Below, piece after piece: positions 13,154-25,183 of a DNA stretch of 64,000 bases. The notes beneath the pieces were generated by a model. That model did no database searches, had not been told where the DNA came from, and saw nothing but the letters and a program-made list of their open reading frames with translations. Numbering within the stretch: position 1 is the stretch's first letter; each line of letters starts with the position of its first letter. The stretch lies in IMG/VR virus record IMGVR_UViG_3300044627_003892. One strand, 5' to 3'. Source of the DNA: a virus. Its lineage: Duplodnaviria; Caudoviricetes. The position numbers were made by a program, and so were the translations under genes.

Positions 13154-14362
13154 TTAGGTTTTATACACCCCTTTGAAATAATAATTATTTTTATCAGGAA
13201 GTTTTGGAGGTAACAATCCATCGTTAGACAAGTATAATACTCTATAAATCCCCGCAGGTATTGCTCCACCTGGAGTTATTGTAATATCCCCAACCGAAAT
13301 TTTAGGGTCAGGAGTTGCTAAAATATCAAAGTCACAAGGTTGTGATTGATAACCAACATTTACTGTCATGTTATTTAAACTTTCATCAACACCCGCAAGT
13401 GGTATCCAAATCGTATACATGTACTGTAAACTAGTGTTAATAACACTATTATCAACTTCAATTGTTTCAAAAGTATATTGGTTAATTAAACATCCAAATC
13501 TATCGTTAATTGTATTTGAAAATTGATTTATCGCACCTTTTAAATTTGTAGGTTTAACAAAGTTTCCTGTTCCACCTGTAAATCCTGAGTATGATGCGTA
13601 TTTGTTCATCATATAACTGTAGTTTGGACTTGTTGGTAATGGAAGTGCTCCCGAATTACCCCATCCGTACCAATTAACACTAGTATCAGGTGTTATACCG
13701 TCCGATAAGTAATACATATAACTTCCTAATCCATATAACGAACCACTTCCCGAAGAATCTTGCGGTTCCGCAAATACGTAAGCGTAATATAGAGGTGTTG
13801 TAATTGATGGTGTTGGGGTAAATGTTGGTGTTGGTGTAGTTGTTGGCGTAGGTGTTGATGTTGCTGTCGGTGTTAAAGATAGAGTTGGTGTAACACTTGG
13901 AGTAATTGATGGTGTTGGAGTTGGTGTTGCCGGTAGAGCAGGTGCGTTACAACAAGGTCTATCAATAATGTAAGGATTATTAGTCGGATAAGAGTAAGAG
14001 TTTAAACTAAAACTACTAAGAACACTTACATAAATTTTTTGAGGTAGTGGTATAATAACAATACCCTGAGATGATTGTTTTAAAAACTGAACTAAAAACT
14101 TACCTTCATTTTTTGTTTCTCTACTTGTGAATTGATAGTTCACATAATAAGTAATATCTAAAGGATTAACAGTAGACGCACTTGTTGTAATATAACATTC
14201 TTTAGACGCTACAACATATTTCTTATTAAATTCGTCATATACCGAAATTAAAATTGTATTACCCGAAATATTTTCATTTAAACCAAAATCACTTCTCCCG
14301 TCTTTTGATATCTCAACTTGGAAAACTGGTAACGTTGAATTTTTCTTAATAAACCATTCCAT
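13154..14362 (-). CDS. virion protein: BppU-like N-terminal domain, Pro/Thr linker, C-terminal domain paralogous to 24179..25183
   Basis: Start moved from the track's 14389 to ATG 14362 (MEWFIKKNSTLP) because it aligns with the start of the upstream paralog (MEFFINKGATLP); [15 protein letters not shown] linker. Confidence 0.7.
   Translation of the reverse strand: MEWFIKKNSTLPVFQVEISKDGRSDFGLNENISGNTILISVYDEFNKKYVVASKECYITTSASTVNPLDITYYVNYQFTSRETKNEGKFLVQFLKQSSQGIVIIPLPQKIYVSVLSSFSLNSYSYPTNNPYIIDRPCCNAPALPATPTPTPSITPSVTPTLSLTPTATSTPTPTTTPTPTFTPTPSITTPLYYAYVFAEPQDSSGSGSLYGLGSYMYYLSDGITPDTSVNWYGWGNSGALPLPTSPNYSYMMNKYASYSGFTGGTGNFVKPTNLKGAINQFSNTINDRFGCLINQYTFETIEVDNSVINTSLQYMYTIWIPLAGVDESLNNMTVNVGYQSQPCDFDILATPDPKISVGDITITPGGAIPAGIYRVLYLSNDGLLPPKLPDKNNYYFKGVYKT
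13795..13935 (-). repeat. coding Pro/Thr (mucin-like) linker
   Basis: [45 protein letters not shown]; boundaries approximate. Confidence 0.9.
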
Positions 14363-14363
14363 A

Positions 14364-14732
14364 TTAAATAGATACGTAACTATTACCAATTTTTATCGTT
14401 AGTTTTTCTCTGATTGGTAAAATATAAGTTCCTGTATCAGTGATAAAAACAAACTCTCCTTCATAAAGTCCCTCTCTACTTGTATCGCTTGAAGTGAATT
14501 TATAATAAACATAGTATTCTGTCTCAGCATTTGGGTCAATAAATGTCTTTTCAACAAACCCTCCTTTCTTATTCAGAATTTTGTAACCCCCTGTTTTAAC
14601 ATCTATCATGGAAAAATAAATCAACGAGTTTTCTATCAGTGACATAAACTCTGTTATGTCAGCAATACCATCTTTAACCACTTGCATTTTAAGAACAGGC
14701 AGTGTTGCACCTTTGTTAATAAAAAATTCCAT
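14364..14732 (-). CDS. stand-alone BppU-like (baseplate upper protein N-terminal type) Ig-fold adaptor (122 aa)
   Basis: F.IxKxxTLP...YxFTSxDTxxEGxYxGEF...ILP pattern recalled for BppU_N-like phage domains; paralog of the next gene's N-terminus. Confidence 0.55.
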   Translation of the reverse strand: MEFFINKGATLPVLKMQVVKDGIADITEFMSLIENSLIYFSMIDVKTGGYKILNKKGGFVEKTFIDPNAETEYYVYYKFTSSDTSREGLYEGEFVFITDTGTYILPIREKLTIKIGNSYVSI

Positions 14733-14761: not shown

Positions 14762-16432
14762 TCAACATTCTTTCCTTAAATTACTATCATAATGTTCAAA
14801 TCTATTATGTTCGGTAGGTGTGAGTAATAAAATACCTGGTTTTAATTTACCTTTAATTGTGTTTTGGAAGTTGTGAGACATTAAAGTTTGTTCATACGGG
14901 TGTTGATATTTTGTCTCCAAATAACATTTATAACTCCCACTTTTTGAAAGAATTATCGGCCAATTACACAAATAGATTTCCCCTGACGCATAAGGTAAAC
15001 CCTTATGTGTTTTTATCTCGTTGAATTTTGTTTTTGGAGCGTTCGGGTCTAATCCCTGTTGAGGTAGTTTTGGATTTTTTGGCCAATGTTGTTCTCTGAA
15101 ATTTTGTGGTACATTATACCAACTCCATTGAGTACTATTATCACCATAAAACTCTGAAAAATTTAATTTTAAAAAATCAAAGTTTTCTTTATTAACTATC
15201 TCTAAACTTTTTTGATATAGATTACTTGCATACCTATTAAACCCATTTCTACACACTTCATTTTTTTGTGAATAAAAAAACATATCATCCTCAAAGAATA
15301 ACATATAGTCCAACCCTGTTTCATCAAAATGTTCCGCAGTCCATTGTCTTCCACCTGTAATACCTATGTTATCTTTTTTAATATGTTCAAAATCATATTC
15401 TTTACAAAGTCTCAAGTATTCTTCTGTTGTTGATAGGTCAGTTGAGTTATCCAATAAAAATTTCTTTGGTCTGTCTAAGAAATCCCTATCATATTCAATC
15501 ATAGATTTAATTAATGTTTCAAATTGTTTTGGAGAATTGAATGTTATTACATACAATGCAACTTTATCCATATCTAAGTCATTTTGAATTTTAACAAACT
15601 CTGTCTTTTTAACTAAAACATCATCTTTTAAATCCTCAAAGAATTTTCCAAATAAACCATTATATTCAATTTCAAAATAATTTATATATTCACTTAACTT
15701 ATAAACCATTATTGAAAATATTGACTCCTCAGTTCCCATATACCCACTTGATAATGTATCATTCAATAGGTTATAGTATTCACCATTCATCTGTGATATG
15801 GTTTCTTTTGGTCCCCCAAAAAACCCACCTCGAGCAACTTTCTTCACATCATCTTCAGCCCATTCATTAATCTTTGGATATGAAAATCCGTGTATCTCAT
15901 TACTTGCGTCGTATGGAAAACAAACAAATGTAAACTTATCAATATACTTACTTAAATTATTTAAAACCTTATCGTGTGTGAAATATCCGGGATGAACAGT
16001 ATTTGTAAGACCCGCATCAATCCAAAATAAAAACTCTGAATTAAATCTATCAAAAATCCTTGCGTCGTTTAATAAAAACATTTTTGACATAACAAGTGGA
16101 TTATACATTTCTAATCTACCTTGTGTTGATTCCTTTAACCAACCTGATTGATTATACCATTCGGGATTGTTTCTGATTTGTTGTATTTTATTATAAAAGT
16201 CATTTTCAACAAACCAACTTTTATCTCTTAAAATAAATTGTGTATTACTTTGGTCTCTTTTTTCCCAAACAAAATCTTCCAATTCTTTTTCACCAAAAAT
16301 TATTAAGTTTTCTTCAACTTTTAATAGTTGTTCAAATTTTTCTAAATAATGTGAAAAAGAACGAGACCAACCTTCTTCAAGATTTTCTCTACCAATATTC
16401 CACAATCCTGTAACTAATGTAATATTACTCAT
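14762..16432 (-). CDS. two-domain glycosyltransferase: HtrL/YibB-like N-terminal domain plus GT-A (GT2-like) C-terminal domain (556 aa)
   Basis: N-terminal TLVTGLWNIGR, FWIDAG, GGFFGG, GTEESI; C-terminal LLDNSTD, NIGITGGRQ, YMLFFEDD (DxD-type). Confidence 0.7.
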   Translation of the reverse strand: MSNITLVTGLWNIGRENLEEGWSRSFSHYLEKFEQLLKVEENLIIFGEKELEDFVWEKRDQSNTQFILRDKSWFVENDFYNKIQQIRNNPEWYNQSGWLKESTQGRLEMYNPLVMSKMFLLNDARIFDRFNSEFLFWIDAGLTNTVHPGYFTHDKVLNNLSKYIDKFTFVCFPYDASNEIHGFSYPKINEWAEDDVKKVARGGFFGGPKETISQMNGEYYNLLNDTLSSGYMGTEESIFSIMVYKLSEYINYFEIEYNGLFGKFFEDLKDDVLVKKTEFVKIQNDLDMDKVALYVITFNSPKQFETLIKSMIEYDRDFLDRPKKFLLDNSTDLSTTEEYLRLCKEYDFEHIKKDNIGITGGRQWTAEHFDETGLDYMLFFEDDMFFYSQKNEVCRNGFNRYASNLYQKSLEIVNKENFDFLKLNFSEFYGDNSTQWSWYNVPQNFREQHWPKNPKLPQQGLDPNAPKTKFNEIKTHKGLPYASGEIYLCNWPIILSKSGSYKCYLETKYQHPYEQTLMSHNFQNTIKGKLKPGILLLTPTEHNRFEHYDSNLRKEC

Positions 16433-17300
16433 ATTTAATATCCTCTAACGCCTTGTAAAAACTTTTATTTATTGTAAAATAATCCTCAGGTAGACCTGGA
16501 GGCCCATTTGTTTCATGCCACCATGTTTCAAAATAGAACATTTTAAACATATCAATATAATTTTGATACATTAATGATAAAATCTGTTCTTCAAACCATA
16601 GCCCTTTGGTGTCCTCAACTATTTCTTTAAGGTTCTGTTCAAACACCTCAACTAATTTTATAAAATTATTTTTTTCACCCCCAAAAATACCCCCAATAAT
16701 ATGTAATGAATTATCATATATTTTATAAAACTTCGGTGGGACAGTACCACTCCAATAATTCCTAACATTATCTTTTCCAATAATTAATATTTTATCATCA
16801 CTTTTATTTATTAATTTATTTAAAAAATCATTATCAAAAAAATGACTGTTGTAGTACCCTTGGTATTCGTCATTATGTTCCAAATATTTGTCGGGTAGTA
16901 ATCCACAATGTGATAATCCAGCATCTATCCAATAATAATAATCATATGACATATCCTCATTTAAGAACCAAAAAAACTTGTTATACTGTATTTCAAAACA
17001 TCTATCACCAGTTTTAACTGACTCAACATTTTTAAAATTTTTAATTAAATTAAAATGATTACTATCCTCTAAATTAAATCCAACAATCTGTAATTGATTT
17101 TCAGAAATATTATTTTCAGAATAAAAAAAATGTTTTAGTTGTTCAATTTCTTCATTACTTGTATAACAAACAAAATTAGCGTTTGTCATTCTTAACAATG
17201 ATATTAGACTCCAACGATAGTGATTATCTCTATTTTGTCTTCCACCATAATCAGTTCCATTTAAATTAGAGTATATTGCGGTTATAAATTTAACTTTCAT
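16425..17300 (-). CDS. HtrL/YibB-like putative glycosyltransferase (291 aa)
   Basis: FITAIY, YYWIDAGLSH, IIGGIFGG, EEQILSL; the same motif set as the N-terminal domain of the neighbouring 556-aa protein. Confidence 0.65.
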   Translation of the reverse strand: MKVKFITAIYSNLNGTDYGGRQNRDNHYRWSLISLLRMTNANFVCYTSNEEIEQLKHFFYSENNISENQLQIVGFNLEDSNHFNLIKNFKNVESVKTGDRCFEIQYNKFFWFLNEDMSYDYYYWIDAGLSHCGLLPDKYLEHNDEYQGYYNSHFFDNDFLNKLINKSDDKILIIGKDNVRNYWSGTVPPKFYKIYDNSLHIIGGIFGGEKNNFIKLVEVFEQNLKEIVEDTKGLWFEEQILSLMYQNYIDMFKMFYFETWWHETNGPPGLPEDYFTINKSFYKALEDIKYE

Positions 17301-18009
17301 ATTTTAATATTTGATTGTTATTATAATCCATATATTCTGATGGTATTTTTACAGGTGAGTATCCATTCCAATTATATGTTTGAGTATAAAAATTGTTATA
17401 AACATCGTGTGACACATCTGAATAAGAACTTCGTTGAGGAGCGATTGGTAAATTTGGACAATAACTTTGGAAATTAGGGTATATTACTTTAGCAAGGAAC
17501 CCATCTATCGGATAAAAATAATTTCCGTCATGGAACTTTTCCTCCGAAATTTTAAACATCTCATCATATATTTTTTCATCGTATATTAGAATGTTTGTCG
17601 CAAAAGTTTCGGTTAAATAATCATGTTTTTTTTCAGGTAACTTTGTTAAGTCCAATAATAAATCACAATCATCACTAATGTTAACATGTCTATTTAATGT
17701 TGGTGATAGATTTAATACATAATAATTTAAATCGTTCATTTTTAATTCAATCTCTTCCAATAGTTTTTTTGAATACGGCATAAAGACACAATCATCTTCA
17801 ATAACCATAACTTTATGGTAACCTCTTTCTTTAGCAATTTTGATGATTTCTAAATGAGATAAAGTACATCCCATATATCCATTCATATCAATAGCTTTAA
17901 AAATTTCAAAGTCCCAAGACATGTATTTCATTTCTTGGGTTATTTCATTTAGTCTCTCAGGTCGTTTTTCTAAATTGATTACAAATTTTGGTATGTCTAT
18001 AAATCTCAT
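17290..18009 (-). CDS. glycosyltransferase family 25-like (239 aa)
   Basis: FVINLEKRPERL, GCTLSHL and VMVIEDDC are the characteristic GT25 (Lex2B/LgtB-like) motifs. Confidence 0.85.
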   Translation of the reverse strand: MRFIDIPKFVINLEKRPERLNEITQEMKYMSWDFEIFKAIDMNGYMGCTLSHLEIIKIAKERGYHKVMVIEDDCVFMPYSKKLLEEIELKMNDLNYYVLNLSPTLNRHVNISDDCDLLLDLTKLPEKKHDYLTETFATNILIYDEKIYDEMFKISEEKFHDGNYFYPIDGFLAKVIYPNFQSYCPNLPIAPQRSSYSDVSHDVYNNFYTQTYNWNGYSPVKIPSEYMDYNNNQILKYES

Positions 18010-19250
18010 AAGTTTCCTGTTATTCTATCACACCACCCTTTAGATTCCGAGTGAGGCCAAACCACCCAATATTTAGGTTTTGAATCAGTTAAGAACTCTC
18101 TCCAAACTTTACAATAACCATCAGGGTCTCTTAACATTCTATCAACTTCACCTTTATCAGCATCTTGTCTGTAAATGGTTTCATCTAATTCATTATGGAA
18201 AGCAACTACCCAAAAGTCATAATCCTTTTCAGGTACTTGAGTAAACCCAATATCAATACAATGTTTGAATACCGATGTGAATGATTTTAACCATTCCTCT
18301 TCTGAATTGAAGTTGTTTGGATTTGGTGGATAACCTTTATCTAATGTATATTGTTGAACAGCTCTCTTTGAAAATAGAAGTCCTGAATATTTTTCATAGT
18401 CTCTTAAAGTTCTAACTTTACCAAAACCATACTTTCCGTGTTTCATATCTTCCTCACCATCCATACCAAATAGAGAACGATTTTTCTTATGAGCGAAATT
18501 ATTCTTATCCACCCATTCTTTATCGTCATCCCATTGTTTGGTTCTACCCTTACGAGTATATTCATGCCAAATCAAAACTTTATGTGGGTGGAATAAATCA
18601 TATCCATGAGTGTAAGCTCTTGCGGCAATTGAAATCTCTTCACCATGAAAATAAAACTCAGGGTCATGTTGAACTTCTTTAGCAAACTTACCAAGAGTAA
18701 AACAGAAGTGAGCAGAGTAAAATCTTGCGGTAACAGGTTCAGTTAAATTTTGCCAACCCGGTATTGTCTCAGGTAAAAAGAAAACCGCACCTTCAGGAAT
18801 AAATCTATCAAACGCCATTCTCCACGGTTCGTTAACACGTAAGTTTGGGTCATTGTCAGGGTCAAACGATGAAACATAACCTGTCAATAAAGGTTTCTTA
18901 TATCCTTTTTTTTGAAGTTGTTTAATCATCTTAATCATCTCATCATCCCAATTTTGACCGAACCTCATGTGTGAGTCAATTTGGAGGGTGTAATTTTCTT
19001 TATCATACACTTGTTGTATTTGATTTCTTGCCCAACATGCTCCTCTAGATTCATAATAAGGAATATCAATTATTCTAAATCTTTCATCATCTCTATATTC
19101 ATCTAAATTATCAAAATTATCATCGCGATGATACTGACGAGCGATACCGAAAACTAAGTTTTCAGGTCGTTTAGCATTTTCTAATGCTGACTTTATAGTC
19201 GGGATTAACTGTGGGTCTCTATAAGACGCAACTTGTATAAAAATTTTCAT
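18006..19250 (-). CDS. GT60/'GlcNAc' family polypeptide N-acetylhexosaminyltransferase-like protein (414 aa)
   Basis: IFIQVASYRDP, SRGACWAR, LQIDSHMRF (DxH), FHGEEISIAARAYTHGYDL. These match the Skp1 GlcNAc-transferase (GT60) family, which is related to GT27 ppGalNAc-transferases. There is an extra C-terminal domain of about 90 aa. Confidence 0.85.
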   Translation of the reverse strand: MKIFIQVASYRDPQLIPTIKSALENAKRPENLVFGIARQYHRDDNFDNLDEYRDDERFRIIDIPYYESRGACWARNQIQQVYDKENYTLQIDSHMRFGQNWDDEMIKMIKQLQKKGYKKPLLTGYVSSFDPDNDPNLRVNEPWRMAFDRFIPEGAVFFLPETIPGWQNLTEPVTARFYSAHFCFTLGKFAKEVQHDPEFYFHGEEISIAARAYTHGYDLFHPHKVLIWHEYTRKGRTKQWDDDKEWVDKNNFAHKKNRSLFGMDGEEDMKHGKYGFGKVRTLRDYEKYSGLLFSKRAVQQYTLDKGYPPNPNNFNSEEEWLKSFTSVFKHCIDIGFTQVPEKDYDFWVVAFHNELDETIYRQDADKGEVDRMLRDPDGYCKVWREFLTDSKPKYWVVWPHSESKGWCDRITGNL

Positions 19251-19319: not shown

Positions 19320-20183
19320 TTAAAATCCGCTTGTTACCAAATTATAAAAAATTAAACCTGTTACGGTGGTTGTTTTTGCAATTGTTGGAGTTGAGTAACT
19401 AAAAGTCATCACGTCACCGCCACTTAGTTCTCCAAATTGTATTCGTAACGGATAATATGTACCAGCAGTTAATGCTATAGAACCTGAACGTTCTTGTGTT
19501 CCATGTAATCCACCGTTATTAACTGTCGAGTTTGTTGTTGTAAATCCTGAAATACTATTACTACCAACCCAAACATAGGAAGCATCATCAGATGAAGTAA
19601 AGAATGTGTAAGTTTCTGTAGTAGTTGGTTTGAAATAACCTAACCATTGACAACTGAAATTCTCACCGTCACTGGTTGGTGGTTCTGTTATCTCGGTGGT
19701 CTGTACTGAAGTCGCAGGATTTCCACCTACTGATGCGGGAGTTGCGGTTGCAAAGAAATTAACATTATCATTAAAGTACCCACTATAAGTTGTTTTAAAT
19801 ACTCCAGCAGTATAACTTAAATCCCAAGATGTCCAATATCCCGCCGAGTTTAACCATGTCTTAGCCGCTGAAGCACTTGCAAATGTTTGTGGTGTTCCGG
19901 TAAAACTTGATACATACTGAGACAAACTAATAAAGTTATTATCTGTCTTACTTGGTGTTCTCCAAAAACCAATATTAGCAGGTACTCCAAGTTTATTTGG
20001 TTGTGTTCCTGATGGTACGGTATGAGCAATCACATAACCTAAATCTTCATCAGGACCACTCCACCATCTTAGTCCTGTAGATGTAAATCCACTTGTTGGG
20101 TATCCAATAGCAATACTTCCAACTTGTTCTGTTCCAGTAATTGTTGAACCTGTATTATATGCAAAAGGTCTTGATGTTGCCAT
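19320..20183 (-). CDS. PA14/GLEYA carbohydrate-binding domain virion protein (287 aa)
   Basis: NFSCQWLGYFKPTTTETYTFFTSSDDASYVWVG...NNGGLHG...LTAGTYYPLRIQFGE..GG is a typical PA14 signature with the DD pair. Confidence 0.85.
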   Translation of the reverse strand: MATSRPFAYNTGSTITGTEQVGSIAIGYPTSGFTSTGLRWWSGPDEDLGYVIAHTVPSGTQPNKLGVPANIGFWRTPSKTDNNFISLSQYVSSFTGTPQTFASASAAKTWLNSAGYWTSWDLSYTAGVFKTTYSGYFNDNVNFFATATPASVGGNPATSVQTTEITEPPTSDGENFSCQWLGYFKPTTTETYTFFTSSDDASYVWVGSNSISGFTTTNSTVNNGGLHGTQERSGSIALTAGTYYPLRIQFGELSGGDVMTFSYSTPTIAKTTTVTGLIFYNLVTSGF

Positions 20184-20330: not shown

Positions 20331-21935
20331 TTAACTAAATGTCACAGTTATTGTTTGTGTAGGTTGTCCACATGAACTACCGTTTAATCCACCCCAATTT
20401 GAATTTTTAATCATAGGTCTCACTGTGTATGTTCCTGGACATTGACACAACCCTCCCGATGTTAAATAAATTGAATTAGCATCAACAGTTCCTGAAACAC
20501 AACCGTGTGCAACTCTCCAAGTATTAGCTCCAATTGTTACTGTAAAGTTTGTACCTGTAGTAGCTGTTCTCAAAGCATTTGCAATATCTTGAACTTTAAC
20601 ATCTGTCACTATTACTGAAGTTCCGAGGTTATTTGATATTGACATATTAGTATAAGTACCCGTTAATTGACTCCTGAAAGTTGTCCAAGCGTTTTCTATT
20701 GTGGTTCCTGGTGCGGCATTATTTGTAAATGTTTCAGAGAATGTAACACCTGTAGCAGGTATTGGACTAACACTTGGTGTTGGGGTATTAGTAGGAGTTA
20801 TTGTCGGTGTGATTGTATTAGTCGGTGTTTGTGTTGGTGTTAATGTATTAGTAGGTGTAATTGTTGGAGTTATTGAAGGTGTTGGGGTGTTGGTTTGAGT
20901 ATTAGTTGGAGTAATACTTGGTGTTACAGTTGGTGTAACTGTTGTTGTCGGAGTAGGTGATGGTGAAATAAATCTTGACGAAAATGAATTGTAATTTTTT
21001 AATACTTCAGTAGAACTTAATACTCTATTGTAAGTCATAGCAACTGAAACTCTACCATTTAATAAATTATTACCAGCGCCAAACGCTCCTATCCTTGTTG
21101 AACCATTACCCCCAATAGGTGTCTTTTGAGCTGTGTATGTATTATCCTGAACACCATTAACATATAATACAAATCCATTTGTGGTATCAAAAGTTACACA
21201 CGCATTATACCACACCCCATTACTAAAGTTAGTGACCGATGGGAAAACTGTATAAACACCCCAATTTGAGTGGCCACAATATAATTTATTGGTGCTAGCA
21301 AAGAACATAAAGTGTCCACCAGTATCACTACTTAATAAATTATTATCTGAAGTACTATTTAAATAAAACCAAATATTCTTTGTATACGATGATAGTCCAA
21401 GAGGTGTTCCTCCAACGTTGACGTATTGAGTGTTACCATTAAATGTAAGGTATCCGTTGTTACTTGAATTGAATGTTGGAGTATTAATTAGTGTTCCGTT
21501 GTTACCACTAAAACTTAAATCATCCCATCGTGAACCACTTCTTGGGTATGATGAAACATAACCAGCATCAAGCAATAATGTTAATCCGTCAGTAACAATA
21601 TCAGGATAATCAAGGTTAACACAAATAAGTCCTGTTTGTCCTGTGTACCATCCTAAGGCTTCGTTAGCCGTACTAAATGTTTGTCCCGCAAATCCTTGTG
21701 TAAAACCAATAAGTTCTGAGTCGTTTTGAGCAACCACTATGGATGGTCCAGCAACTGCCTTGTTTCCATACATGGTATAACCACCTGATGGTGGTATAAT
21801 AGAATTCCAAAATCCTGTAACACTTGTTGGCCCGTATTCCGCACCTTCATTAATACCCAAAACCCAATCCTTAACTTTAATCGTATTAGGATGAAAGGAC
21901 GTTGAGTATTTTATTTTATTTGGTGGTATTGGCAT
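20331..21935 (-). CDS. LamG/concanavalin-A-like lectin domain virion protein with Pro/Thr linker (534 aa)
   Basis: GLTLLLDAG..SYP.SGS.W.DLS..GNNGTL, FNG..QYV, WYNACVTFD...LYVNG, RIGA...LNGRVS..MTYNRVLS; start moved to ATG 21935, which overlaps the upstream TAA (TAATG). Confidence 0.85.
   Translation of the reverse strand: MPIPPNKIKYSTSFHPNTIKVKDWVLGINEGAEYGPTSVTGFWNSIIPPSGGYTMYGNKAVAGPSIVVAQNDSELIGFTQGFAGQTFSTANEALGWYTGQTGLICVNLDYPDIVTDGLTLLLDAGYVSSYPRSGSRWDDLSFSGNNGTLINTPTFNSSNNGYLTFNGNTQYVNVGGTPLGLSSYTKNIWFYLNSTSDNNLLSSDTGGHFMFFASTNKLYCGHSNWGVYTVFPSVTNFSNGVWYNACVTFDTTNGFVLYVNGVQDNTYTAQKTPIGGNGSTRIGAFGAGNNLLNGRVSVAMTYNRVLSSTEVLKNYNSFSSRFISPSPTPTTTVTPTVTPSITPTNTQTNTPTPSITPTITPTNTLTPTQTPTNTITPTITPTNTPTPSVSPIPATGVTFSETFTNNAAPGTTIENAWTTFRSQLTGTYTNMSISNNLGTSVIVTDVKVQDIANALRTATTGTNFTVTIGANTWRVAHGCVSGTVDANSIYLTSGGLCQCPGTYTVRPMIKNSNWGGLNGSSCGQPTQTITVTFS
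20761..20966 (-). repeat. coding Pro/Thr (mucin-like) linker
   Basis: [41 protein letters not shown]...; boundaries approximate. Confidence 0.9.
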
Positions 21936-24169
21936 TATCTTGCAACTTCTGTTATTCTCAACCACATTGAAGTAGATGAATTTACTATTGTGATACTATC
22001 ATCCGCAGAACTTCTACGACATGCAACTACTATCGATTTTGCGGTTGTATTAGAGTTAGTGTATCTACCCGTTAATGGAAATAAAACACCTGTACGAAAT
22101 CCATTAACCGTGCTTTGTACTGAATAGGTTATTTCACCACCATCAACCTTTATTCTAGATATGTATGAATCATTACCTGTACCAGAAGTAAAATCAAAAG
22201 ATGCTAAGTGATAATGTATTACTAAATAACTTGTAGAACTTAATGGTGTATAACTATAAGTAACAAAATCAGTATCCGAAGTACTGGTAGCAATAGTTGT
22301 AGTACTAACAGTTACCTCAGTATTACTCAAAATAATATCGTTAATTACCTGACCGGCTCTCCACGCATTAGCCTTTATAAATCCTGTAAATACCACATTA
22401 CCTGTGGTATCTATAGCCATTTTTACCGCACCTCCTGCTTCATTTAAATTATTTGTGATACGAACTAACTGTCCACTTAGAACATCAAATGACCCATTAA
22501 AACTATCAATACCAAAGTTTGAATTATTAGCATAATAAAACAAAACACCCGGAGTATCTGTACTATTATTATCAAGAAGAACATCACCAGTAGCTGACCC
22601 CGCCTTTGTAAATGTTCCGTTACCAAAAGATGTTACACCTGTAGTACTTATATTACCATTAACACTTGTATTACCTGTAACTGATAATGTAGTACCATCA
22701 AAAGTCATTCTAGCCTGAGCAACCGCAGCATTAGATGTCCCATCAGATGTTAATACTCTATTACTACCCGGACTTGTGATTGTGGTAAATCCTGTACCTG
22801 ATGTTCCGGCAGAACCGGAACTACCCGATGAACCTGATGTACCAGAACTACCTGAAGTTCCTGAAGAACCACTTGAACCTGATGTTCCGCTAGTTCCTGA
22901 AGAGCCACTTGAACCTGATGTTCCGCTAGTTCCTGAAGAGCCAGTACTTCCACTTGACCCTGAAGAACCACTACTACCACTTGAACCATATGTACCAGAA
23001 CTACCTGAAGTTCCACTACTACCACTTGTTCCTGACGAACCTGTAGAACCCGAACTCCCCGAACTTCCTGATGACCCAGACGTTCCTGATGAACCAAAAG
23101 ATAAACCCGAACTTCCTGATGACCCCGCACTTCCCGAAGCACCTGTAGAACCACTACCACCACCTCCACCACCAACAGGCATAACGGTAACAATCAAAGA
23201 AGGAATTGCTGGATGTAAAGCAGTTGATGCCTCTGCCAATAATGAAATATTGACATTGTTAGTCGCCCACATTAATTCAACATATGTTCCGGCAGTTACA
23301 GTAATTAAAAAATCCCAAGCAGCAACTAAATATGGGTTGTTTGTAGGAACTGAAACTTTTGTATTGGTATTAGGAACATTAACACCATTTTGTCTTAACC
23401 AAATATCAACATCCACACCCGCACCACCACCTTTATTATTGTTTAATTGAACCGAGAATTGAATATCATAAGTTCCAGCACTAGCAAAAGTGATTTGTGA
23501 ACCTGAAACAATCGTAATACCACTAGCCTCAGCAGTACTATTCAATCTCATAGGATATGCGGTATTGATTAGTGTCGCCGTTTGTCCTGATGTATCATAG
23601 AACGAACCATATAAATTAACACCTGAAGTTAAAGCTCCCGTTGAAAACTTTCTCCATGCCGCAGTACTATATGTTGCACCACTAACATCTTCAATAGTGT
23701 TAGCAGTCCAAGAATTAATAAACGACTGACCCGCAGCAGTTTTATTATTTATTGTTGTTCCAAAATCAGAAACCTGAGCACATCCCGTACTAGCAGTCGC
23801 AGCATTAAATAAAGTCTCGTAATCATTAATATGATATTGATAAACTTGGTCAACCTCATAAACATAAGCCAACATACCAAGTCGTCTTCTACCTGATGAA
23901 ATATTATCTGAAGCTAATGTAATTACATCAGGAGACCAAGCGGCACCCGTTCCCTTTGTAAACTCAATAGGAATAGTATTACCTGAATATTCAATACTTC
24001 CCGTTGTTCCTGTTGGTATTGTATAATAAAGGTCAGATAAACTGAAAACCTCCATATAACCACCCGTATTGTTAACACTGAAAGTAGTACCATAAGTATT
24101 GTTTCTTGGGACACTTTGTGTTCCATTTAGTTGGATAGACGATATTGGATTTTTATATGGGAAACTCAT
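21935..24169 (-). CDS. fibre protein paralogous to the giant protein: shared N-terminal domain, C1q/BclA-like domain, short Gly-X-Y tract, shaft and tip domain (744 aa)
   Basis: N-terminal PY.NPIS, SDN.SSGRRRLGM and YQY.I..Y shared with 717..13124; YGSFYD...ITFASAGTYDIQFSVQL...YVELMW jelly-roll pattern; GSS/GTS tract near 22795..23150. Confidence 0.8.
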   Translation of the reverse strand: MSFPYKNPISSIQLNGTQSVPRNNTYGTTFSVNNTGGYMEVFSLSDLYYTIPTGTTGSIEYSGNTIPIEFTKGTGAAWSPDVITLASDNISSGRRRLGMLAYVYEVDQVYQYHINDYETLFNAATASTGCAQVSDFGTTINNKTAAGQSFINSWTANTIEDVSGATYSTAAWRKFSTGALTSGVNLYGSFYDTSGQTATLINTAYPMRLNSTAEASGITIVSGSQITFASAGTYDIQFSVQLNNNKGGGAGVDVDIWLRQNGVNVPNTNTKVSVPTNNPYLVAAWDFLITVTAGTYVELMWATNNVNISLLAEASTALHPAIPSLIVTVMPVGGGGGGSGSTGASGSAGSSGSSGLSFGSSGTSGSSGSSGSSGSTGSSGTSGSSGTSGSSGTYGSSGSSGSSGSSGSTGSSGTSGTSGSSGSSGTSGTSGSSGSSGTSGSSGTSGSSGSSGSAGTSGTGFTTITSPGSNRVLTSDGTSNAAVAQARMTFDGTTLSVTGNTSVNGNISTTGVTSFGNGTFTKAGSATGDVLLDNNSTDTPGVLFYYANNSNFGIDSFNGSFDVLSGQLVRITNNLNEAGGAVKMAIDTTGNVVFTGFIKANAWRAGQVINDIILSNTEVTVSTTTIATSTSDTDFVTYSYTPLSSTSYLVIHYHLASFDFTSGTGNDSYISRIKVDGGEITYSVQSTVNGFRTGVLFPLTGRYTNSNTTAKSIVVACRRSSADDSITIVNSSTSMWLRITEVAR

Positions 24170-24178
24170 TTACTATAA

Positions 24179-25183
24179 TTATATATCAACCTTACTTCCT
24201 CTAAAATAAAGGTCGTAAGTATTATCCAATTCAAATGTATTTGATGGGTATGTTGTGTAAACTTTATATTCCGCCTTAACAATAGTTCCACCAGTATAAT
24301 TAAATGTGTTTGAATATATTGTTGGTTCCATTTTCACACTTGTAAAAACATTTGGATTTACAATTCCTAAATCAATCTCAATTTGATATTTGTAATTAGT
24401 ATATACCACAGGTATTATCCATGTGTACCACGCCTTAGAACCTACAGTATTTTCAGGTACTTTTGTTGTTAAAAAGTTGTAAGCAATTATTGGGTTACCA
24501 TATGAATCCAAACCACTTGTTGTAATCGGTACTGTCTGTTTTATAATTGACGGGAATGAACCTGATGTCCATCCTGAATAATTAACATATCTATTCATGT
24601 CTAAATCAAACGTAGATGCTGATGTACTTGGTTGAGAAGTATTTGTAAAACCATAAAAACTTGAACCGAGTGAACTCATATAAGAACCAATACTTGATGA
24701 CCCTGAATATGGTTCAATGAATAAGTAAGCATATAAAAAAGGTTCAGGTGTTTGAGTTGGTGTAGGTGTTGTCGTAACCGTAGGAGTTACTGTCTTAGTC
24801 GGAGTAATACTTGGTGTAACTGTATTTGTTGGTGTAATTGACGGAGTAATACTTGGTGTTGGAGTAAATGATGGAGTAACACTTAGTGTTGGAGTATTCG
24901 ATGGTGTTAAAGATAATGTGGGAGTATTTGTCGGTGTAATACTTGGTGTTGGAGTTGGTGTTAAACACATGTAATTTTGTGTAAATACACATCCCGTTGA
25001 ATCAACAATCTTAATTAATAATTGAGGAGCTGTTGTATAACCACTTGGCACAGGAAAACTAACTGATGGTGGAATGTAATCCGTGAAAGTTCCTATAAAT
25101 TGACAATTAAACTGGAAAATATCACAAACATATATTTGATACGGTGGAATACCTGAAACACTATCAATAGTAATTAAACTCAT
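24179..25183 (-). CDS. virion protein with Pro/Thr linker and C-terminal domain paralogous to 13154..14362 (334 aa)
   Basis: [27 protein letters not shown] and YFRG align with YAYVFAEP, MNKYASYSGFTGG, YTIWIP and YFKG. Confidence 0.75.
24741..24962 (-). repeat. coding Pro/Thr (mucin-like) linker
   Basis: [45 protein letters not shown]...; boundaries approximate. Confidence 0.9.

Follow-up and report, generated by a model that had tools for sequence, protein, structure and literature searches.

The DNA analyzed here, 64,000 nucleotides of the IMG/VR virus record IMGVR_UViG_3300044627_003892 (Duplodnaviria; Caudoviricetes) and referred to as the window, belongs to a large T4-like myophage, with baseplate wedge genes, a UvsX-like recombinase, a gp32-like single-stranded DNA-binding protein, a DnaB-like helicase, and a class I ribonucleotide reductase. 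Its minus strand carries at 18006-19250 an intact open reading frame (ORF) encoding 414 amino acids (aa). A preliminary description, made from the sequence alone, had taken the product for a GT60-like polypeptide N-acetylhexosamine (HexNAc) transferase with an extra C-terminal domain. The gene and the parts of its product are as follows.

18006..19250, (-): GT60-like glycosyltransferase gene (414 aa, P0001), first in a cassette; ORF, PF11397 (E 9.9e-68), phrog_24687 (E 2.4e-170)
18366..19250, (-): GT-A catalytic domain, residues 1-295; Pfam match ending at residue 292, structural alignment with GalNAc-T2/GT27
18969..18977, (-): DSH (DxH) metal-binding motif, residues 92-94; translation, conservation
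18636..18647, (-): HGEE motif, residues 202-205, within FYFHGEE; translation, conservation
18564..18569, (-): W228-H229, with H229 as candidate C-terminal metal-binding histidine; translation, invariance, role by analogy with the GT-A 'C-His'
18009..18365, (-): PPNP linker (residues 296-323) and C-terminal FN3/Ig-like beta-sandwich (residues ~324-414); predicted structure

The family of the protein was examined by profile searches. PF11397 (Pfam 'GlcNAc', CAZy GT60) matched with 229.6 bits against a cut-off of 21, in two stretches spanning residues ~1-292; PHROG 24687 covered residues 2-411, that is, the full length, and PF11397 was carried by all homologs checked. The DSH and FHGEE motifs named in the preliminary description were both found in the translation, and among 125 non-identical homologs D92, H94, E205, R211, H229, and R233 were invariant, with the HGEE motif conserved at 98-100% for G203, 92-100% for E204, and 100% for E205. 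This invariance, together with the score far above the PF11397 cut-off, indicated that the motifs do not occur by chance. By analogy with other GT-A enzymes, H229 may be the metal-binding 'C-His'. Replacement of DxD by DxH is a common hallmark of GT27 and GT60, two families that phylogenomics places side by side and that have O-glycosylation of polypeptide Ser/Thr in common, GT60 being restricted to prokaryotes and protists (PMC7185993).

Modeling of the whole protein by AlphaFold2 from a 26-sequence alignment gave a pLDDT of 95.2 and a pTM of 0.90. The closest solved structures were GT27 polypeptide GalNAc-transferases (Z up to 22.6, root-mean-square deviation [rmsd] 3.4 Å over 275 residues), which made up all of the top 29 PDB rows of the structure comparison (Z 19-22.6), and the next GT-A families, such as chondroitin polymerase, TarP, and SpsA, followed at Z of at most 18 (16.4 for TarP). 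Although GT27 is therefore the nearest family by structure, the catalytic domain is only 11-14% identical to GT27 enzymes, and Pfam gives PF11397 instead. Sequence searches of the PDB with the single protein and with the 26-sequence profile returned no match at E up to 1, and no NCBIfam model matched the protein. The hydropathy scan detected no hydrophobic segment (maximum KD19 0.76), and the first Rossmann strand of the model begins right at the N terminus, indicating that the protein is soluble and cytoplasmic. Collectively, these data confirmed a genuine PF11397/GT60-type enzyme.

The preliminary description had also noted a Trp-rich C-terminal domain of about 90 aa and drawn a parallel with the C-terminal lectin domain of GT27 enzymes. 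The stretch DFWVVAFH ... KYWVVWPHS..KGW is present in the translation, and the C-terminal 119 residues hold 6 Trp versus 7 in the first 295. Structure prediction and fold search, which had been suggested there, were run on residues 296-414; folded alone by AlphaFold2, this region was again confident, with a pLDDT of 95.2, and as its beta-sandwich core covers residues ~324-414, the size of about 90 aa is correct. An exhaustive structural comparison matched residues 326-414 with FN3 and other Ig-like sandwiches (Z 7.0-7.7, rmsd 2.7-2.8 Å, 77-78 residues). Given that the best Z of 7.7 is middling, in a range that the tool calls common, we limit the claim to an Ig/FN3-like beta-sandwich. This fold ruled out a ricin-type beta-trefoil lectin of the GT27 kind, and any likeness to the GT27 lectin domain is therefore one of position only. 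Pfam found no Ricin_B_lectin match in the GT60-like protein; a Foldseek search of the PDB with the C-terminal domain gave nothing at E 1e-3 or better, and a language-model search with the same domain gave no usable match.

The distribution of the C-terminal domain was then assayed. A domain-only search of 1.8 billion representatives found 223 proteins, which were either short fragments or carried the domain after a GT60-like part (~residue 300), and in the ESM Atlas the same shape occurred solely in PF11397 phage clusters (TM 0.84-0.88). The domain is present in all close phage relatives and was detectable in 71 of 81 full-length homologs from bacterial genome assemblies; R361, D363, P392, W398, and W406 are conserved at 79-90% in the bacterial copies and at 100% in the phage copies. 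The domain is missing from other viral PF11397 proteins, which are 300-330 aa long. Thus, it is 'extra' relative to other members of PF11397, these shorter phage forms among them, but not as a peculiarity of this phage, and judged by its occurrence across homologs it is a fixed module of a large phage and bacterial subfamily rather than this phage's own innovation. Among the bacterial loci, no clear association was observed between the domain and either an HtrL/YibB+GT-A partner gene (35/71 copies with the domain vs 2/10 without) or a Thr/Pro-rich neighbor (19/71 vs 2/10). Our preferred guess, held at somewhat less than even odds, is that the domain positions the glycosylation product or the extended polypeptide serving as acceptor; otherwise, it may have a structural or docking role.

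The GT60-like gene is the first of four co-oriented, translationally coupled genes with overlapping ends, the ATG of the second overlapping the GT60-like stop codon as ATGA. The remaining genes of the cassette, and the gene that follows it, are listed below.

17290..18009, (-): GT25-like glycosyltransferase (239 aa), second gene; PF01755 (E 1.1e-13)
16425..17300, (-): HtrL/YibB-like protein (291 aa), third gene; 29% identity to XacN1 ORF332 (E 1e-27), clusters with the HtrL family among neighbors
14762..16432, (-): HtrL/YibB domain fused to a GT-A-like domain (556 aa), last gene; PF09612 (E 2e-13), 43% identity to XacN1 ORF330
14364..14732, (-): 122-aa protein after the cassette; paralog of the N-terminal domain of a 411-aa protein

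None of the four cassette proteins has a hydrophobic segment (maximum KD19 ≤0.76), and promoter and terminator scans stayed at chance level. Neighboring genes were counted in 80 related IMG/VR phage loci and in 80 loci from bacterial genome assemblies. The 556-aa gene was present in 77 of the 80 phage loci and the 122-aa gene in 75; counts were lower for the 291-aa gene (46) and the GT25-like gene (35). A homolog of the 556-aa protein adjoins the GT60-like gene in 33-34 of the 80 bacterial loci, and P0234 and P0239 are fusions of such a homolog with the GT60-like protein. The predicted complex of the GT60-like and 556-aa proteins scored 0.00, a value that counts neither for nor against binding. 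The interval from the GT60-like gene to the 556-aa gene varies from one to seven genes among related phages, and the variable genes encode uridine diphosphate (UDP)-galactopyranose mutase, PLOD-type GT, GT10, GT34, GT61, and methyltransferases (e.g., L083:11250-17619, L105:11257-14713, and L098:15835-17052). Such variable content has the pattern of a glycan-diversity island, and because the interval genes differ even between closely related phages, it suggests glycan diversity at the strain level.

Several architectures were recorded besides. Fused forms among P0142, P0186, P0147, P0137, and P0234 include a tandem arrangement in which the GT60-like part plus C-terminal domain occurs twice; one fused homolog ends in a CX5R phosphatase-like domain (weak DSPc match), and in a 1196-aa fusion the GT60-like part is combined with an HtrL domain, a region matching methyltransferases weakly, and a C-terminal region resembling the GT-A-like half of the 556-aa protein. 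The 122-aa protein has no family match; it aligns with residues 10-127 of the 411-aa protein at 29% identity (E 5e-14), and in some relatives this domain itself precedes a Thr/Pro tract.

Candidate acceptors were sought by a composition scan for Thr/Pro linkers, which detected three ORFs in the window.

20331..21965, (-): 544-aa laminin-G/ConA-like virion protein, candidate acceptor, Thr/Pro linker from residue 333; PF13385, virion-structural PHROG, composition scan
24179..25183, (-): 334-aa candidate acceptor, Thr/Pro tracts at residues 75-95 and 123-146; composition scan
13154..14389, (-): 411-aa candidate acceptor, Thr/Pro linker at residues 155-201; composition scan

The three are all no more than 6 kb away from the cassette; the remaining 40 kb have no such ORF. 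In the related phage loci, a Thr/Pro-linker ORF occurs within 8 kb in 72 of 80, often directly upstream of the GT60-like gene, and in several of them the ORF in that place is a homolog of the 334-aa protein that has Thr/Pro tracts. Such ORFs made up 118 of 758 (15.6%) within 5 kb versus 22 of 506 (4.3%) at 5-10 kb; the Fisher p of 7e-11 overstates independence, since the counted loci are related. For comparison, the complete 294-kb relative G001 has a rate of 4 in 340 ORFs (1.2%). Directly upstream of the GT60-like gene in the window itself, at 19320-20183 (-), lies a gene for a 287-aa protein with a PA14/GLEYA domain, a carbohydrate-binding adhesin fold; it contains 29% Ser+Thr and no Thr/Pro tract.

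The cassette could also glycosylate virion proteins without the GT60-like enzyme being the initiator on these linkers, the enzyme adding HexNAc to a prior sugar or using another Ser/Thr-rich acceptor, for which the 4135-aa and 744-aa fibers offer a candidate in their collagen-like Gly-Ser/Thr-Ser stalk, which has no proline. The 4135-aa fiber has 58% Ser+Thr and lies 1.6 kb from the last gene of the cassette and 5 kb from the GT60-like gene; both the GT25-like gene of the cassette and the PLOD-type GT domain of related loci belong to families that include collagen-modifying enzymes, and the 556-aa partner is conserved as well as the GT60-like gene. However, an ORF with at least 10 Gly-X-Y triplets was found within 8 kb in only 5 of the 80 related loci, versus 72 for the Thr/Pro linkers, making the latter better candidates than the giant fiber. 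Moreover, the characterized GT60 and GT27 enzymes all act straight on polypeptide (PMC7185993, PMC9472816), and the VgrG proteins beside bacterial homologs bear (Thr-Pro)n and no collagen repeats. We therefore hold a non-initiating role unlikely, while giving it more weight than the further alternatives below.

Gnt1, the best-known GT60 enzyme, modifies hydroxyproline of Skp1 in Dictyostelium and Toxoplasma, and the linkers found here are proline-rich, so that a Skp1-type enzyme requiring a hydroxyproline acceptor had to be considered. The preliminary description had seen no prolyl hydroxylase in the window and had favored Ser/Thr acceptors on this account. Consistently, Pfam found no 2-oxoglutarate (2OG) oxygenase of the prolyl hydroxylase type among window ORFs of at least 100 aa, four replication/baseplate genes having been scanned with PHROGs only. 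The search for a 2OG-Fe(II) hydroxylase was also carried beyond the window, and in five related genomes that are 93-100% complete neither PF13640 nor PF03171 gave a match, both profiles having matched in control genomes. The lack of a prolyl hydroxylase in these sets favors Ser/Thr acceptors, and GT60 also includes Thr-directed enzymes (PMC9472816); dependence on hydroxyproline is thus the least credible of all the readings weighed here.

To place the enzyme in a wider context, its bacterial homologs were inspected. Type VI secretion clusters surround the GT60-like gene in Burkholderiales; those of Ralstonia sp. 25C and Paraherbaspirillum soli also encode, 1-2.5 kb from it, a VgrG spike with at least 10 perfect Thr-Pro repeats in its C-terminal extension (VgrG at L077:10270-13131 (-) and L035:11903-14389 (-); GT60-like genes at L077:7950-9347 and L035:6529-9350). 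Beside the GT60-like gene, these type VI clusters carry TssF, TssG, TssA, and a fimbrial MrkD-like protein, with ClpV nearby in Cupriavidus clusters, and the enzymes linked to them have a divergent C-terminal region. Next to some other bacterial GT60-like genes, PqqD-like proteins, which bind peptides, are encoded together with an HprK-related kinase, and in P0244 the PqqD-like protein and the enzyme form one chain. A GT60-like gene, an HtrL+GT-A partner, and a small PqqD-like protein occur together at L025, L027, L030, L041, L057, L060, and L079 (e.g., L041:9220-10445), which are loci of Gemmatimonadota, Tepidamorphus, Bryobacteraceae, Methylococcaceae, and Luminiphilus; all these groups but Luminiphilus have a homolog of HprK-related kinase A. 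By gene content, these loci look like peptide-modification clusters of the kind that makes ribosomally synthesized and post-translationally modified peptides (RiPPs). A C39-peptidase ABC exporter of the bacteriocin/peptide type is encoded immediately upstream of the GT60-like gene at three loci, which come from two Sphingobacterium isolates and one metagenome-assembled genome (MAG) of Bacteroidota (L040:5279-7489, L056:3925-6147, and L059:3924-6146). The Thr/Pro neighbors, the peptide and secretion loci, and the VgrG repeats thus provide a genomic context that argues for a polypeptide acceptor.

The gene was found in only four cultured phages, all of them jumbo phages (Xanthomonas XacN1 and Xoo-sp13; Stenotrophomonas CM1 and RAS14), whose proteins are 45-47% identical over the full length. 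XacN1 ORF334 is 47% identical to the GT60-like protein over the full length, C-terminal domain included, and its cassette keeps the partners, with identities of 43% between ORF330 and the 556-aa protein and of 29% between ORF332 and the 291-aa protein (E 1e-27). Baseplate genes and a giant protein with a Thr/Pro-type linker are close by, namely the 3313-aa ORF325 (C-terminal part L001:22186-25344), in whose Pro/Ser/Thr linker 24 of 30 residues are S, T, or P. Unlike the window, XacN1 has a carbamoyltransferase and an unrelated ORF331 where the GT25-like gene stands, and its host is gammaproteobacterial. At least two glycoprotein bands of XacN1 virions are Schiff-positive and are ascribed by the authors to phage glycosyltransferases; the GT60 family and the C-terminal domain are not described in that paper (PMC5852040).

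As for the window phage itself, megablast of the locus against cultured phages gave no match, and near-identical DNA was found in 24 lake-water metagenome runs, all of DNA, none of RNA being listed. Its relatives reach 290-320 kb. The best matches among genome assemblies (61-74% identity; L003-L010 and L012) are contigs binned with MAGs of Saprospiraceae and other Bacteroidota, one contig being 230 kb in length. They are probably phage DNA that was binned together with that of the host, and so hint at Bacteroidota as host. Four glycosyltransferase orthogroups are reported in the core genome of the 'moraphage' lineage, which has Bacteroidota hosts (PMC12619734).

The genes of the cassette also permit the reading that, to exclude superinfection or take over the host, it remodels a structure of that host (lipopolysaccharide [LPS], capsule, S-layer, or a surface protein) instead of the virion. 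The HtrL/YibB and GT25 families are annotated from LPS loci, and serotype-altering phage glycosyltransferases are well known (reviewed in PMC12619734). Nevertheless, the four cassette proteins have no membrane segments; Pfam scans detected no flippase, polymerase, or lipid-carrier priming transferase at the locus; the cassette is co-oriented inside the fiber and baseplate module of a T4-like lytic phage; and it is the XacN1 virions themselves that hold glycoproteins. Such remodeling therefore appears improbable.

DNA is another conceivable acceptor, the enzyme glycosylating hypermodified bases of the phage genome against restriction, as many phage GT-A and GT-B enzymes glycosylate 5-hydroxymethylpyrimidines (bioRxiv 10.1101/2023.12.21.572611); in addition, each complete relative has one gene of the thymidylate synthase family. 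However, the DNA-modifying GT-A enzymes described in that study are JGT/TarP-like, have R...DDD...EDY/F motifs, and lie beside 5mYOX, C5-methyltransferase, or ThyS genes. The GT60-like protein has a DxH motif and is nearest to GT27 rather than to TarP, and its neighbors are fiber genes and glycosyltransferases. The only ThyA-family gene of the relatives lies more than 100 kb from the GT60-like gene and in three of the five relatives scores as an ordinary thymidylate synthase (~300 bits or more), and the placement of bacterial homologs in secretion and peptide-modification loci also counts against DNA. A Tet_JBP profile search was uninformative, in that control genomes gave no match either. Taken together, a role in DNA modification is very improbable.

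On this evidence, the best explanation, to which we assign a probability of roughly 55%, is that the GT60-like protein starts O-glycans in the cytoplasm, as a HexNAc transferase that uses Ser/Thr in the Thr/Pro linkers of the phage's own fiber and decoration proteins. A soluble, cytoplasmic, metal-dependent GT-A enzyme of family GT60, the sister of the mucin-type GT27, would move HexNAc, by family precedent alpha-linked GlcNAc, from UDP-HexNAc onto the linker Ser/Thr hydroxyls before virion assembly. The glycan would then be extended by the products of the three coupled downstream genes, that is, the GT25-like, HtrL/YibB-like, and HtrL/YibB+GT-A proteins, joined in related phages by variable further sugar enzymes.

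Several points weigh against this explanation. The initiating role is suggested by family precedent only, and priming of the glycan could instead fall to the 556-aa protein or to some other enzyme; to our knowledge, the prokaryotic and phage GT60-like subfamily has no biochemically characterized member. A non-protein acceptor is possible, because HtrL/YibB and GT25 are known from LPS loci. The Thr/Pro-linker enrichment was counted over related and thus non-independent loci, and in G001 only one of the four Thr/Pro-linker ORFs adjoins the cassette. The FN3 match of the C-terminal domain is a middling one, as stated above, and the proteins in the Schiff-positive bands of XacN1 were neither identified nor tied to ORF334.

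The proposed system has both likenesses and differences to known ones. The characterized GT60 enzymes we know of come from protists, the prokaryotic members being database entries, and our literature search found nothing specific on GT60 or PF11397 in phages. With TcOGNT1, which acts on mucin Thr, and Gnt1, which acts on Skp1 hydroxyproline, the phage enzyme has in common PF11397, the GT-A fold, and DxH in place of DxD, and like Gnt1 it is soluble, with neither signal nor anchor. The protist O-glycans are extended, and here extension by neighboring enzymes is probable: the T. cruzi GT60 enzyme forms GlcNAc-alpha-1-O-Thr on mucins, afterwards extended by Gal and Galf, which the UDP-galactopyranose mutase of one related phage recalls (PMC9472816). 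Unlike the protist enzymes, the phage and bacterial enzyme bears the subfamily-specific FN3/Ig-like domain and is coupled, sometimes fused, to an HtrL/YibB+GT-A partner, and unlike the Gnt1 system it lacks a prolyl hydroxylase partner in the five near-complete relatives. GT27 enzymes such as human GalNAc-T2 (PDB 2ffu, 6nqt) combine DxH with a C-terminal His, to which H229 may correspond, and likewise have a catalytic domain followed by an accessory C-terminal one, and their acceptors are Thr/Pro-rich mucin-type repeats, to which the candidate linkers can be likened. Their accessory domain, however, is a ricin-type beta-trefoil lectin of ~130 aa instead of an FN3/Ig-like sandwich of ~90 aa, and they reside in the Golgi lumen by a type II membrane anchor, whereas the phage enzyme is anchorless and cytoplasmic. 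According to a review's summary of the work of Freeman et al. (2023) on mycobacteriophages, phage-encoded glycosyltransferases put O-glycans on the phages' own structural proteins as well; the glycans described there are on C-terminal extensions of capsid and tail-tube subunits, whereas the candidates here are Thr/Pro linkers of fiber and decoration proteins (PMC12619734).

This work adds the fold of the C-terminal domain and where that domain occurs, the fusions and bacterial settings of the enzyme, and the finding that near-complete relatives have no hydroxylase. A broader and distinctly more tentative proposal goes further: the GT60-like enzyme, its Ig-like domain, and the HtrL/YibB+GT-A partner might together form an unrecognized prokaryotic system of cytoplasmic mucin-type O-glycosylation for Thr/Pro stalks of contractile-injection appendages and for secreted peptides. 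Its substrates would be jumbo-phage fibers, type VI VgrG spikes, and possibly RiPP-like peptides, and dense, processive glycosylation would come about through recognition of the extended Thr/Pro acceptor, or of the nascent glycopeptide, by the Ig-like domain, making this domain convergent with the GT27 lectin domain. Direct tests are feasible, since XacN1 and its host are cultured and the enzyme occurs next to a (Thr-Pro)n VgrG in Ralstonia sp. 25C and Paraherbaspirillum soli KACC 12633. For glyco-engineering, a soluble bacterial-type enzyme able to glycosylate Thr/Pro linkers in E. coli might be a useful tool. Should the reading hold, HexNAc-initiated mucin-type O-glycosylation on Thr/Ser of Pro-rich repeats runs in the bacterial cytoplasm, and strain-variable glycans coat phage fibers and probably type VI spikes, which would bear on phage host recognition, on the shielding of virions from proteases and immunity, and on the evolutionary origin of the GT27/GT60 mucin machinery.

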